From NCBI GenBank assembly GCA_051294905.1, contig CM119371.1:36642001-36706000 (forward strand): a stretch of DNA of 64,000 nucleotides, read 5' to 3'. The position numbers and the translations under genes were made by a program. Below are positions 21,701 to 62,100 of the stretch, piece by piece. The DNA is from Botryllus schlosseri. Its lineage: Eukaryota. The notes below the pieces were generated by a model. It worked only from the letters and a program-made list of their open reading frames with translations. It made no database searches and was not told where the DNA came from. Position 1 is the stretch's first letter. The number at the start of each line of letters is the position of its first letter.

Positions 21701-24700
21701 AAATGGGAACTAGTGCAGTATATGCCCGCTTTACTCGTGTGTCTACTTGACGTCATTCATCATGATTCCCCATGATCCTTTAATTCAATTGCCTTCTTCT
21801 ATTACTTAAACCTTTTTTCTTTTTATTCTCTCGTTTTTCCACACGAGCTAAAAATGCTGACTCAGCATTTTCTCCAGTTACGAGGTTTCAGTTTTTTTCG
21901 TTGGCCCTCATTATAGTGTTTTTGTCCATTTACCCTTCTTATAATATTCACACTCTGCCAATACGTATTTACATGTTTTGTATGATTGTTGGTGGTATAG
22001 GACCTTCACACAATACCACGTCTTGTACGTTTGATTGCAGCAATTCGAGTCCCTCATTCCTTAGATTTGCTGCTTTCATGCAAATTACCACATTCCGCCT
22101 TTTGCTTTTCTTTGTTAGCGTTTTGCTCAAATGAATGAATCTCCTGTTCATCCGTTCAATGCCCACGGACATTATCTGTCTCGCATTGTTTTCGGTCGTC
22201 ATGTGGTACAGTACCTCATTACCTTCATATTTACAGTACGGAGGAGGCGTCCCTTTTGTATGTCCATGGGCGGCCGCCACACCATATTCCGTGGTTATTG
22301 CTCTGTCGCATCTTTGCATGACACTCTGTATTTCGTCCATTTTCATTTGTTCCCCAGTTTTCTTTTGAAAGATACTGCAAATATCTTCCCAAGGATGGAA
22401 CCCGTTCACCGAGTTGTCGCAAAGTTCATGTCGACAGTGATACATCAGCATCTGCTGTATTTTTTCCGGTCGGGGTCTTTTCTGTCGGTTCGAAACGCCC
22501 TTTTTCTTGGGAATCGTCGCCCAAACATGTGGATCATCTTCTCCCGCAGCCATCTCCATCCAATAAGAACGAGACAATCCATCTGACGTAAATACCTGCA
22601 TCGTACTTAGATGAACTACCTCTTTTATTTGGAATCCTGCTAGATGATTGAGCCACCTCTGAATTAGGGGTTTTGGGCTTGGATTTTTCGCTTTGTCCGT
22701 CATTCTTTTGAGGAGCCCAAAAACCCCAGTATTATCAGTGATTATTGTAAAGGGTAAGGCTCTCAACATTGATTGCCATTTTTCCACCGAATCTTTTAAG
22801 GCTTTCAATTCCTTTGTACATGGATCATAAGCCTTTGCCGTTGGAGTCGCCCACTTTTGGCTGTAGTAAGCAATTGGGTAAACCTTTTCGAACGGTGGTT
22901 TACACCCTTTTTCCGTCTGGAAAATGATTGATCCAAACCCAATATCTGAAGCGTCCGTTTCCACAAAAATGGGAAGATTTGGATCCAGATGATACAGAAC
23001 CTTAGCATCATCGAGGGCTGCTTGTGCCGTTTTGAAGTCCTGCAGTAATTCGTTGGTCCATAGCACAGGCGTCACTCGTCCTTGTGTCGCAGGGACCTTG
23101 CCCGTCAGCGCATCGAATTTGGCCAGCTTCAAACTTAACTCAGGAATATGTTCCGAGATATAGCGAAGTGCGCCAATCCACCCCCTTAACTCGTATACAT
23201 TGTGGGGTGGTGAGAGTTCGCGTAAAGCCCTTATTCTTTCGGGCTGAACCTCAATTTCTTTCCCCGTCAAGGTTGCCCCCAAAAGGTTTACCCTTCGCTT
23301 TCCAATGAAACACTTATTGATGCTAACCGTCAGTTTCATCTTGGCGAGCTGTTCAAATACCATGCGTAGCAGCAGTAAATGGTCTTCTACAGTTCTTGTG
23401 CTGAGGAAAATATCGTCTATGTAGGCCTCCATAGGCGTTGCATTCTCCTCGTCTGTCCTGCCAACTTGTTTCATGTGTTGTTGGTATTTTTCCGTGATAG
23501 GTTTCACCACGCATTCCTGCATATTCGCGCTCCAAAGAGCTACAGCTGTTTTAAGCCCCATCGGCATTTTACGCCATCTTACATGCATCCCTTTGATGGC
23601 TATACCCACATATTGTTTAGATCTTTCCGTGACATCCATGTGGAAATAGGCCTTCTTCAAATCAAGGAGAGAAAGCACTCCTCTGCCTTGGGCGAGCTGC
23701 TTTACGTCCGGTACAAGAGGTGGTGGTACTTCTATTGATTTTATGGCCGCATTAAGGGGTTGGAGATTCTGTACTACTCTCCAGGCTTGCTTCCATCCGT
23801 CCTCCTGTTTTTGTCTCTCATTCATTTTCTGAGGGACCACAAAGATAGCCAACTTCCATTCGGCAAAACCTCGCTCAATGACGCCCAAGTCCAGGAAGTT
23901 ATCTACCGCTTCTTTCAATGCCTTTGCCTGGCCCTCCCCCTTTAAATTATAAGGCCCAGACACAAATGGTTTCGTCGAGGGATCTTTAAGCTCGATGTCA
24001 CATTTGTATTTCATGGTTTGCGGGCCCCCAAGATGGCCTCGCAGGTCCTCGAGTTCGGATGCGAACGGCGTGTAGACGGCTTTCCAAACATCATCAGCAA
24101 TAATGGTGTTTTCTGGAGTCGTCAGATCAGGAGGTTTGTATGGGAGTTTGGCCAGCGCTACGGATTGTGCGCAGAGATTTTCGAGCTCCGTCTTGACACG
24201 TGGGTGAGTGTCTTTCTGTAAAACATACGTAGTGACTGGACCAGCCATTGGCTGGTTTGAGATTCGTGATGACCGGGTTTTCGGTGTTGGCGGAGAGAGG
24301 GCGAGGTTCTTCGATGTATGCCTCTGATCTCGGCGCGTGCCCGCACCTACCGTCACGCCGACGGATTCCTTTTCCGCCGGGGACCCTTTTTCTGGGGAGA
24401 CGTGCATCATAAAATCCCCAGACTCCTTGTCGGACATGTCCGGATGTGCATCCGGTTGACCGGCAATTGCTGCTTCGATTGAACCTTTTGGGAAAGTACT
24501 CATTACTGTGGCTGTCGTCATGCAACTATGGGCCGAATCATTAAGGTTATTCGGACAAGTGCATCCACGAAGGCACTTAGGACCAGTTTTCTCGTGCAGG
24601 TCTTTATTTTCGCCAGGAGACATTTCGCTCTGGATGTCAGTTGTAATAGTCGCCATGCAACTATGGGCCGGATTCCTATCGTCATCCGGACAAGTGCATC

Positions 24701-59100: not shown

Positions 59101-62100
59101 CTGTATCATTCTATTATTTATTTGTCTGCTAAGATCCATCGTCTCTTCGTGTAACCGGGATGAAACTGTCGCAACGACGGCGATCGTGGATATTATAGCG
59201 AATACCAGACATATCAGTTCTGCCAGGAACCTTTTACGCCTTCTACGCGTACCCCGATGTGCGGTATTACTTGATGCCAATTCACCTTTAATTTCTATTG
59301 GACCCCCTGGAAAGCGTGGTCGGTTTAGCTCCGGATCAAAATGAACATGGTCCCAAAAGGCTGCCTTCAAAATGGGTCCTCCTACAGGGTCGCGGCACAA
59401 ATCCTGGTTATGTGATATTCTATTTTTACATGCTTCATCCGATGCAGTAAGAGAGGGGAAGAATTTCCACATAGGCCTGGGAAAAGGTACCCATGTTGAT
59501 GTAGATGCCTTAAACCTAGTCGGCACACCATCAAAAAGGTTATTCCACCTCATGCCCTGATTGCCACGATTAGCATACACACTGTGATCCAGATTTGGAA
59601 AAGACGGTTGTATCCATTTTACTCTGGGAGGAAAATTTGTCGTTGGTAGATCACCCCATAGAGTGGTATTCATTCCTGGCCAGAAGTTGCACGAATGGGC
59701 TATTACACGACCCCTTGGCCATAAGTGCTCAAACCAGTCCTGATTAATCCATCCCCCCTGAGCCCGGCATGGTATCAATGGAGTGCGCACATACGGCACG
59801 TTACTTACTTTAGTCATTACTATTTCTTGGATGATTATATCTGCCTTATTTGGTTCCAGGGCAGAGATAACTCCTCTAAAATCACACCTTGTACAGATTC
59901 CCAATATGACCCCTTTCTCCCTATAGGAGTACAACTGTTGCCAATAGTCGCCCCGGTAGGCTCTTTTTTGTATTAGATGCCAGCATTGTGTAAAACTATT
60001 GCTACTGGCATTATACTTATTCAATTCATTTATTTCGGCTCTGTCCCGGTCTCCCATAGGCTCTTGACGGCATGATGCTTCAATAGCTGAATAACTTTCG
60101 AATAGCCTCATCATAATTAATTTAAATTTGGTCAGAGCAAACATAGAGTAATTCTTGCCACGGTCATGAAACGACATGTATTGGTCCCCACTCCAGAACC
60201 AACGAATCCTATAATACCCTATTGGACGCACGAACATGTTCGTTTGTTTAAGGACATCATAGGAAATATTGGGCGTGATTTGGCCCAGGCGCCGCTGACA
60301 GAGACAGGTGCGTTCAAATTCTTGTACGCTTGTCCAATATCTTCCATGTGGAAACGCCATTTGTTGTAATGACAATCGCTCAGCCACTACGTAACCAAAT
60401 GACTTACTGTAAAACAACTCTGGCCGTCTATATACATGTTGCTCCGCCGTTTTATTGAAGATGCTCATCAAGTGATATTCCTCCCATTGCGTATCATTTA
60501 AAGTGATCCATTCTTCAGGCAGGGGTCCCCGTAGTTCGCCTAGCGTCCCCTGAGTGAAGGACCGTGCCCTACTTGTTACAGGATCTGCGAGTCCGTGCAT
60601 GCTTTTCGCCGCCGTATGCAGCACCAAATCAGACGTACAAATGATACCAACAAGGATAGACAGAGAATAAGGAAGGAGGTCCATGGTACATCTAGTGGTG
60701 GTTCTCGCCACGTCATAAACTAAATATAATCGCGCACTAGACCTAGACTACCGTCTGTAAAAACACAAAATAACAGATGTCGTCATTTTCGTCCTGGAAC
60801 CTTATAGCGGGGTTCACAATTGTGGTAATACAGGAGACCCATCAAATTTGTCAAAATTATACCGTGGATCATTGTGTATGGTGCGCAGGAGTGCCAAGAA
60901 TCGGTCAGTCTTTTGATGTTGACGTTTCCACAAAAACTCCCCTACGTAATCGGCCAAAAGGTGACGTGCTAAACCACGAGACCTATATAAATGATATTTA
61001 AGCTGTCCCCAGGCCCCCTCGATTTCATTAGTACAAAAAGCTGTCCGAGGGTCCTTAAACCACCGGGAGTGGTCCACTACACCGTGTATATAACCCTTCC
61101 CCCAGCTTTCTATGCCCCTGTAGGAAGGGTAGGCATCGGTTAAAATTGTGGACCCCTCTGCCACATTTTCTACTATGAACTTTCGAAATACTTGAGCAGT
61201 CCTGTCAGAAGTTATTTCGATGAACATTTCTCCGGTGGCTTTGTCTATTCCCCCGAACGCCCAAATGGCTTTAACGGCTGGTCCTTTATCTGAGGTAACC
61301 CGACGCTTAGCCAGATGCGTTTCATCAATAACCACACAACCGCCTTCATTTCCCAAACGTCGCTTATTCCTGTGAAATTCGGCCGTACAAAGCTTTCGCA
61401 ATCGGCCACACCAGGTGACCGTTGAACGTTGGCTAATCTCGGCTTCATGCGAAATTTGGGTTTGCAACGCGTCATGGGACCAAAAGTAGAACAATATTAA
61501 TAATTTGGGAAGTTCTACCTTGCTTCCCGCGAATATCGAGTGTTTCCGTATAGTCGCCGTAGTGTCACAGGGGTTGCATCGCCACCTAAATCCATCATCG
61601 CCTGTTGACGTAATTTCCTCTTTGATTATTTTTTTACATCGCTTGCATTTCATCCTTCGCACCAACAACCCGTGATTTCTCAGAAATATCACACAATCCC
61701 GTGTGTTTAGCAATGCACCCGATTCGACCAAACTCAACACATTGTATGTTCTTTTCCGCGTATCTGCGCAAGTAAATAATACGACATGTGGCGTCGATCA
61801 ACTCCCCATCGTCTTTAGCGGATCAAACCCCCCTTTTTCTTGGCGTTTCATGTGTACTGACTCTCTCCTATTTTAATCCCGTGTTATTCCTATGACAGGG
61901 TTATTTTTTTCACTTGTTCCTTACCAGACCTAATGATTTTTTCACCCTCATTTCAATGTACATGCAAAACACTTACTATCCTACTACACACCCATTTTAT
62001 GGTGCAACAACTATTGCCGCCTAGACCTCCGGGCACTTATTTCACAAGTACCCCTGAAATGATATATGTGACACTTATACATTGTCAAATTATTAAAAAT

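Follow-up and report, generated by a model that had tools for sequence, protein, structure and literature searches.

A 40-kb retroid element without integrase, bounded by Merlin-type transposon ends: a candidate for a new class of enveloped virus

Introduction

To our knowledge, some reverse-transcribing elements never integrate, and the others enter host DNA through an integrase of their own, through a tyrosine recombinase or by target-primed synthesis. Members of the Metaviridae (Ty3/gypsy) produce target site duplications (TSDs) of 4-6 bp; the Caulimoviridae, which are without integrase, carry out tRNA-primed reverse transcription to a circle; and DIRS and other tyrosine-recombinase retrotransposons combine reverse transcriptase (RT) and RNase H (RH) with an enzyme other than an integrase, by which a DNA circle is believed to be integrated. 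Here we describe an element of a different construction, residing in a 64,000-nucleotide stretch of contig CM119371.1 of Botryllus schlosseri (the window; part of a 495.5-Mb eukaryotic assembly labelled G000): a retroid gene set with envelope-like genes and no integrase, accompanied by transposases and enclosed by ends of the Merlin type.

According to passages of a Merlin survey (PMC8101967), these IS1016/IS1595-like transposons have GG-initiated ends, TSDs of 8-9 bp and terminal inverted repeats (TIRs) of 24-462 bp, highly imperfect TIRs being known in one family; the term "reverse transcriptase" has 0 occurrences in its main text. Teratorn is described in parts of PMC10175614 and PMC5718144 as a piggyBac-herpesvirus fusion for which excision to a circle was proposed. 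Among giant elements, the env-bearing planarian Burro has BIR motifs and a fusion-glycoprotein-like env (passages of PMC6431247); the sizes of Ogre, Burro and Terminons are treated in sections of PMC10175614 and PMC6431247, and Polintons and env capture in sections of PMC5718144. The latter review, in its treatment of replicase-integrase-structure combinations, asks whether undescribed ones exist.

Results and discussion

Structure of the element

The element (positions 21706-62052, 40,347 bp) has GG...CC at its termini, which are identical at 16 of 22 positions (Table 1). The first-pass annotation had delimited this unit by a 9-bp TSD and imperfect TIRs, and both are seen in the sequence, with the same nonamer on the two sides; likewise, all 21 open reading frames (ORFs, 89-1186 aa) that it had described as co-oriented lie on the minus strand. 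Their order is end, transposase, env1, env2, accessory genes, U3-R-U5, gag, pol, end. The window element contains no long direct repeat, and the claimed absence of long terminal repeats (LTRs) is correct for a terminal pair, but one internal LTR-like module is present.

Pfam recognised a zinc knuckle in Gag and RVT_1 and RNase H in Pol, and together with a -1 slippery site these confirm the annotated gag and frameshifted protease (PR)-RT-RH pol; the gag/pol overlap is arranged alike in L076 and L077, and the hairpin after the slippery site is weak (z -1.9). The central helical region of Gag resembles Retrotrans_gag clusters, which is a lead only. An integrase, claimed to be missing, was indeed found in the window neither by Pfam nor by tblastn with three integrase regions (best E 1.8). 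Its usual place at the end of pol is occupied by a Tpt1/KptA domain that was absent from the first-pass annotation and whose sequence motifs RH, GH and RxxxH are kept in most of nine sequences; that it processes or caps RNA or DNA ends would be a guess. Pfam gave no match for env2, the protease region or the gag core.

Two Merlin/IS1595 DDE transposases had been claimed, and both Tnp1 and Tnp2 match DDE_Tnp_IS1595 with the D-D-E residues intact. Tnp2 occurs in most close copies and in four others, and the subfamilies at 56-61% RT identity have one transposase each. The predicted env1 product combines a basic cleavage motif, a hydrophobic peptide (485-512), long helices and a C-terminal membrane span (767-802), with a weak language-model match (0.90-0.91) to coronavirus S2 and Fusion_gly clusters, and the N-terminal part of env2 is an env1 paralogue (25% over 143 aa, E 6e-8). 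Of the claim of two envelope glycoproteins, the sequence architecture stands, but confirmation by fold failed. Genes of a host-manipulation type, also annotated earlier, are predicted by Pfam matches to UQ_con, three BIR domains with a RING, and LRR.

Distribution, linkage and selection

A search of the assembly with the RT-RH region gave 79 matches, the 70 longest of which were analysed; linkage was scored for 102 of 138 transposase matches and for 53 rows from 55 env1 matches. In 60 of the 70 cases a Merlin transposase lies on the same strand no more than 85 kb from the RT, the ten others being three RTs on short contigs, three close copies lacking a same-strand partner and four members of a group at 44-46% identity. 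Transposases of at least 37% identity have a same-strand RT within 85 kb in 89 of 91 cases, and those at 30-33% identity in none of 11 (chance ~0.02). The env1 gene directly follows the transposase, the two starts being no more than 1.7 kb apart in 52 of 53 rows. Element-type transposases with no RT match nearby were observed at C1:7142097 and C9:27360265.

Element ends were located at 30 left and 20 right loci, 17 of which could be paired. Fifteen pairs have a perfect 8-bp TSD, the window copy has 9 bp and one pair has none, so that the 9-bp TSD reported earlier is true of the window copy but not of the family, where 8 bp is usual. Because two of the 15 pairs share one duplicated flank, there are 14 independent sites with an 8-bp TSD. 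The length is 38.0-40.4 kb in 13 of the 17 pairs, and a genome search with the end pattern gave 118 matches against 5 for a control. The 10.5-kb middle region recurs in the other copies scored (8 candidates). More distant copies on C15 (17.8 kb, RT identity 61%, TIR match 19/30, 8-bp TSD GGCTTGAG) and C8 (19.6 kb, 56%, 8-bp TSD GTATCTTG) also have GG..CC termini, and in both pol ends in Tpt1, after which the element terminus is reached. The search for further copies has thus yielded a family of dozens, with the same end types and their own TSDs. Copies with LTRs or an integrase and unlinked to Merlin ends, which the first-pass annotation had named as the contrary outcome, did not appear: wherever the ends could be read they are of Merlin type, with TSDs in all pairs but one.

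A test for co-divergence of RT and transposase had also been proposed. In several subfamilies RT, env and the Merlin transposase are found in company, and their divergence is stepped alike: RT identities of 95-100%, 92-93%, 90-91%, 83-85% and 56-61% go with transposase identities of 85-100%, 72-75%, 56-62%, 54-57% and 37-41%, respectively. The overall correlation of the two identities (Spearman 0.88, 60 pairs) was set aside as no independent test, the copies being kin and at least one pairing joining nested elements.

When 19 copies were each compared with the window copy, dN/dS of RT-RH was 0.024-0.063 in all 19, which indicates strong purifying selection; the ranges elsewhere were 0.06-0.47 (Tnp1), 0.12-0.51 (Tpt1), 0.14-0.47 (5' part of env1) and 0.14-0.89 (protease-linker). 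Such constraint on the RT would be unexpected for the passenger of a cut-and-paste transposon. The copies are mosaics between segments; between C4 and C5a, for instance, the difference amounts to 0.4% in the 5' part of env1 and to 4.6% in the adjacent transposase. The linkage, the Merlin-type ends, the TSDs and the lack of an integrase support the earlier view of a retroid element that integrates via a Merlin transposase, and we regard it as very probable that its propagation involves reverse transcription as well as Merlin integration.

Relatives and RT phylogeny

RT-RH-Tpt1 proteins without integrase are encoded in public assemblies (P0001, P0002, P0073, P0074 and P0077), a gag followed by a frameshifted pol is present on two contigs from marine metagenomes, and sequencing runs under three organism labels contain element DNA; none of the runs so listed is recorded as RNA. 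No relative was found in IMG/VR. The Merlin link is shown in G000 only, because the marine contigs are too short to include ends. In P0073 an Exo_endo_phos (AP-endonuclease-like) domain (~880-967) follows the Tpt1 of pol, possibly another replacement of the integrase, or a fused neighbour.

The possibility that the element is a chance composite or an assembly artefact has to be considered in a repeat-rich region with some nested and duplicated copies, and we hold it to be highly improbable: it is contradicted by the linkage data and by the separate TSDs at 14 independent sites, related gag-pol-Tpt1 arrangements occur in unrelated public contigs, and the DNA recurs in the runs of three organism labels.

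In a FastTree phylogeny of 84 RT-RH rows (midpoint root only; no retrovirus, BEL, copia or DIRS rows), the seven members of the clade group together (support 98), their sister is the integrase-bearing P0146 (98), and 11 caulimovirid rows form a separate group (100). The simplest reading of these sequences is that the integrase was lost from a gypsy-like ancestor. A search of the PDB with the RT gave 8r0s, which we take to be a caulimovirus RT, as the best match and foamy virus Pol as the second; despite the top score, we rejected a caulimovirid relationship on the tree. The earlier label "pararetrovirus-like" may therefore be kept for the way of working but not for the ancestry, since in this tree the RT sides with gypsy-like proteins that have an integrase.

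Signs of an RNA stage

The tRNA primer-binding site (PBS) proposed for the window copy is complementary to a host tRNA-Ile(AAT) along 19 nt. A second subfamily (subfamily B, copy L074) has another sequence at the homologous site, matching a single genomic locus that ARAGORN calls as tRNA-Thr(CGT).

Embedded 226 nt upstream of the PBS, after a branch-point-like sequence and before an ATTAAA, is a 24-nt sequence that we take to be the spliced leader of stolidobranch ascidians (a literature search did not return the sequence). In the bulk RNA run X24, 3,589 of 3,599 aligned reads fit only in part, and 3,042 reads have one adapter-like sequence, presumably a template-switch oligo, behind 28909 with diverse sequence on the other side; positions 28885-28908 therefore correspond to the host trans-spliced 5' leader. 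A spliced leader RNA gene at this place was ruled out, as no GT donor follows. In trans-splicing, the leader replaces the outron (passages of PMC3074122). Both copies of subfamily B that were read contain the leader, and it lies at -4.6 to -5.0 kb from the RT in 13 of 61 copies, compared with 0.02 expected (first 100 of 320 listed sites). In the single-cell run X22, 793 reads with 83 starts, nearly all in element sense, lie over 29066, stacking up shortly before the ATTAAA, which is the pattern that a poly(A) site in R would produce.

About 350 nt upstream of the leader/R position there is a purine-rich motif. Leader, poly(A) signal, purine motif and PBS would together constitute one interior U3-R-U5-PBS module. 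Positions 28912-28986 are duplicated (84%) at 30293-30366, before the nearest accessory ORF, which suggests reuse of an outron or promoter. The IAP, E2 and LRR genes are without interruption and one ORF is followed by poly(A) tracts; we list these features among the signs of an RNA stage.

Circularly permuted gene orders

In seven copies of two subfamilies, the transposase stands directly behind pol, its start ~2.4 kb after that of the RT, and in six of these seven permuted copies env1 comes next. The spacer between pol and transposase is ~0.1-0.15 kb and contains no inverted-repeat pair in the two permuted copies read. Followed upstream from gag, subfamily B keeps to the arrangement of the window and continues into the accessory genes; an ordinary two-LTR provirus was ruled out for this subfamily, as the accessory genes extend upstream of the PBS. 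When the ends of the window element are joined, the classic retroviral order R-PBS-gag-pol-(integration enzyme)-env-accessory-U3-R is obtained. The permuted orders are our main, albeit indirect, argument for a circular form. Between-segment distance correlations (RT-env 0.84, RT-Tnp1 0.76, Tpt1-Tnp1 0.44) were also considered as a test of adjacency on a circle and were dropped as unclear.

These observations bear on the view that the element is a giant cut-and-paste Merlin transposon moving purely as DNA, with gag, pol and env as passengers or in some other role. In its ends, TSDs and transposases the element is Merlin-like throughout, and the two RNA runs sampled showed no intermediate of an RNA stage. 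However, constraint is stronger on the RT than on the transposase, the PBS pairs exactly with a tRNA that differs between subfamilies, the leader is embedded at the position of R, and the gene order is circularly permuted; the RT selection, PBS switch and leader argue for an RNA stage, and movement as DNA alone is in our judgement very unlikely.

A proposed cycle

We favour, as the probable explanation, an enveloped retroid virus of gypsy-like ancestry that has lost its integrase, captured a Merlin transposase and follows an excision-circle cycle. The genome would be a circle in the order U3-R-U5, PBS, gag, pol(-Tpt1), attachment site, transposase, env1, env2, accessory genes, U3. Genome-length RNA would start at R, receive its cap with the spliced leader, run once round the circle and end in R. 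Gag would package this RNA, and tRNA-primed reverse transcription would jump from the leader-R at the 5' end to the copy at the 3' end, giving a DNA circle, which the transposase would cut at the abutted inverted repeats and insert with an 8-9 bp duplication. Since the transposase would open the circle at these repeats, the provirus would be a circular permutation of the RNA genome. With such a layout the integrated form cannot yield genome-length RNA in one piece; the provirus would have to be excised and re-circularised beforehand, which would make the cycle temperate and prophage-like. The products of env1 and env2 would serve cell entry, and IAP, E2 and LRR proteins would act on the host. 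Both the temperate habit and the enveloped particle are inferred.

Two variants keep reverse transcription and Merlin integration and dispense with excision. In the first, the same virus persists as an episomal circle, and proviruses are mostly dead ends that arose by separate germ-line integrations. In favour of this variant, purifying selection is strong and the copies are mosaics, which suggests that they diverged while replicating as a population, and gag and pol are nearly silent in the two RNA runs. Conversely, a host repeat within the element is present at three other loci and absent at three; a repeat common to several loci fits re-mobilised proviruses, although it could have entered an episome, and the shorter elements of 10-16 kb with both of the same ends likewise speak against this variant, which we consider unlikely. 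In the second, two proviral RNAs (R-gag-pol-end and end-transposase-env-accessory-U3-R) are joined by RT template switching at R and at the duplicated target. Both transcripts would arise naturally from the permuted layout, the sense reads end near R and mosaicism fits template switching; yet exact ends would have to form through 8-9 nt of homology, and we think this variant doubtful and decidedly unlikely.

Several observations weigh against the excision-circle cycle and the viral interpretation. The ends of subfamily B were not located, and no end-to-end junction occurs among the loose read ends listed, the far end lying outside the compared stretch. In the C8 copy the terminal repeats agree at 12/30 positions only, and around the four RTs of the 44-46% group the search gave no transposase within 85 kb. 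The env1 fold (two-row alignment, pLDDT 35) was uninformative and a PDB sequence search with env1 gave 0 matches; the gag core model (single sequence, pLDDT 44) was too poor to use and gave no Foldseek match. The leader occurs at 320 genomic places, and its presence is therefore not unique to the element. The depth over gag and pol was ~1 or less in the two RNA runs, sampled to 6% and 3%. Finally, reverse transcription of 40 kb exceeds that of the LTR elements reviewed in the passages concerned of PMC6431247.

Comparison with known systems

The element resembles the Metaviridae in its CCHC Gag, frameshifted PR-RT-RH and tRNA primer site; in the midpoint-rooted tree, its RT stands among gypsy-like proteins. 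It differs in having no integrase or terminal LTR pair, TSDs of 8-9 bp with inverted ends, a Tpt1 domain, separate DDE transposases, a permuted provirus and a size of 40 kb. From the Retroviridae it is likewise set apart by the absence of an integrase and of a two-LTR provirus. The lack of an integrase is shared with the Caulimoviridae; in contrast to these, the RT lies outside the group of 11 caulimovirid RTs, and there are TSD-forming integration, envelope-like genes and an animal host. DIRS elements offer the nearest working analogy, an RT-RH with a non-integrase enzyme, but the enzyme here is a DDE transposase with 8-9 bp TSDs, the element has a protease, a tRNA primer site and env-like genes, and Pfam detects no tyrosine recombinase in the window.

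As in Merlin, the ends begin with 5'-GG, TSDs are of 8 or 9 bp (16 of 17 pairs and the C15 and C8 copies) and the DDE_Tnp_IS1595 transposases keep D-D-E. Beside the Merlin TIRs of 24-462 bp, those found here are of 22 bp with 16 matches, or match at 19/30 and 12/30 positions in distant subfamilies, and, unlike in Merlin, a full set of retroid genes under strong selection lies between the ends. Teratorn shares with it viral genes framed by TIRs and integration by an internal co-opted DDE transposase; the virus is here a reverse-transcribing one and the transposase Merlin, and Pfam reveals no herpesvirus core or piggyBac gene among the 21 ORFs. Judged by its sequence, the element would fall outside the Metaviridae, Retroviridae, Caulimoviridae, DIRS and Teratorn, lacking one defining feature of each, and would count as Merlin by its ends and enzyme while carrying a selected retroid core.

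We found no description of it in the full-text literature, most subscription journals and Repbase being outside this coverage. On this evidence the element is real and multicopy. Whether it represents a new class in the full sense, namely an animal virus of temperate habit that is enveloped, reverse-transcribes a genome of up to 40 kb and has a permuted provirus, Merlin insertion and excision at an internal attachment site, the host spliced leader starting the strand-transfer repeat and Tpt1 in place of integrase, seems to us evenly balanced.

An RT and virion genes are thus paired with a cut-and-paste transposase, and the pairing is kept across subfamilies 40% apart in RT. Should the circle model be true, this would be a prophage-like life cycle in an animal retroid virus, would raise the size limit for reverse-transcribed LTR-type genomes, and would provide a natural enzyme that inserts a 40-kb cargo. 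The RT-RH-Tpt1 signature is a simple handle for finding more such elements.

Coordinates and additional observations

Table 1. Features of the window copy, and positions of the divergent RT group
Feature	Position	Strand	Remarks
Left TSD	21697..21705	.	CCTGAAATG; pairs with right flank
Merlin-type TIR, pol end	21706..21727	+	GG-initiated
pol frame, PR-RT-RH-Tpt1/KptA	21969..25586	-	Pfam and ORF list
Tpt1/KptA RNA 2'-phosphotransferase-like domain	22002..22460	-	usual integrase position; Pfam PF01885 E 7e-11; PDB 7kw8 E 3e-7; NCBIfam
RNase H	~22632-23060	-	within pol
RT	~23268-23792	-	within pol; YIDD
Aspartic protease motif	~25328	-	within pol; DTG
-1 frameshift signal	25493..25538	-	AAAAAAC slippery site, then hairpin; gag/pol overlap
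gag, 938 aa	25517..28333	-	CCHC knuckle; Pfam
89-aa ORF	28342..28611	-	N-terminal hydrophobic stretch; similar ORF in same place in subfamily B
PBS, 19 nt	28641..28659	-	tRNA-Ile(AAT)
Candidate poly(A) signal	28851..28856	-	ATTAAA, in putative R
Embedded host spliced leader, 24 nt	28885..28908	-	putative R start; no GT donor after
U3-like region	28909..29268	-	begins at purine-rich motif, ends in branch-point-like sequence; sense transcription
Purine-rich motif, 17 nt	29252..29268	-	candidate polypurine tract; common to subfamily B
Accessory cluster	29799..33105	-	four paralogous 131-152 aa ORFs (29799, 30412, 32249, 32650), E2 and 171-aa ORF
E2 ubiquitin-conjugating enzyme	31008..31463	-	UQ_con (Pfam)
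171-aa ORF	31525..32040	-
Two poly(A) tracts	~32134-32195	-	within accessory cluster
IAP-like gene	33252..34946	-	uninterrupted; 3 BIR + RING (Pfam)
230-aa ORF	35186..35878	-	paralogue of 38850-39416
Tnp2, internal Merlin transposase	36099..36977	-	DDE_Tnp_IS1595; D-D-E present; 39% identical to Tnp1
Accessory ORFs	37096..44050	-	184 aa, LRR protein, 188, 286, 172, 171 aa
Secreted-type LRR protein	37715..38755	-	Pfam
Stretch without long ORFs, 10.5 kb	44100..54590	.	host repeats incl. 44443-45175; common to other copies
env2, 1186 aa	54598..58158	-	S/T-rich mucin-like region; C-terminal membrane span
env1, 838 aa	58168..60684	-	class I fusion-like layout
Tnp1, terminal Merlin transposase	60814..61797	-	Pfam DDE_Tnp_IS1595; D-D-E present
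Merlin-type TIR, transposase end	62031..62052	-
Right TSD	62053..62061	.	CCTGAAATG; pairs with left flank
RT group at 44-46% identity	G000 C3:28676123, C1:23959497, C1:967589, C2:22048757

In the RT group at 44-46% identity, the pol of copy L079 ends in Tpt1, followed by an ORF for which Pfam gave no match, and 8.4 kb further downstream the same strand carries a copy of the leader.

A splice-acceptor-like site (window 61762, minus strand) lies ~20 nt before the conserved (Y/H)NV codons of Tnp1, in the same reading phase, in three subfamilies (window copy, L071 and L086); the window Tnp1 has no ATG at this place. An upstream exon, perhaps spanning the joined ends, is possible.

Shorter elements, of 10-16 kb, share both ends but contain no RT match; they are located at C1:748744-758853, C3:6128652-6141619, C5:17542361-17554489, C13:15715340-15727488, C2:15288067-15301718, C15:10598292-10614643 and other sites. 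Two of them have a leader ~4.5 kb from the pol-type end, and it is possible that they are satellites. Elements of different subfamilies are nested in opposite orientation at C3:31.14-31.18 Mb and C16:20.59-20.66 Mb, and duplicated ends with identical flanks occur at L061/L062 (C3:13561394-13567162) and L049/L050, inverted in one case and direct in the other.

Leader pairs 1.7-2.0 kb apart on one strand (C1:40613846/40615670, C2:25733026/25734975, C5:5782250/5784066 and C8:12851934/12853625) are candidate small two-LTR elements with a leader in each LTR. At C12:26.02-26.16 Mb there is a tandem array of ~35 matches to the 3' end of tRNA-Ile, spaced mostly at 2-3 kb. The window flanks commonly contain AGTCA-rich repeats, and positions 62858-63511, with related stretches at ~1838-2266 and ~11231-11804, belong to a repeated host element with a 203-aa ORF that has no Pfam match.

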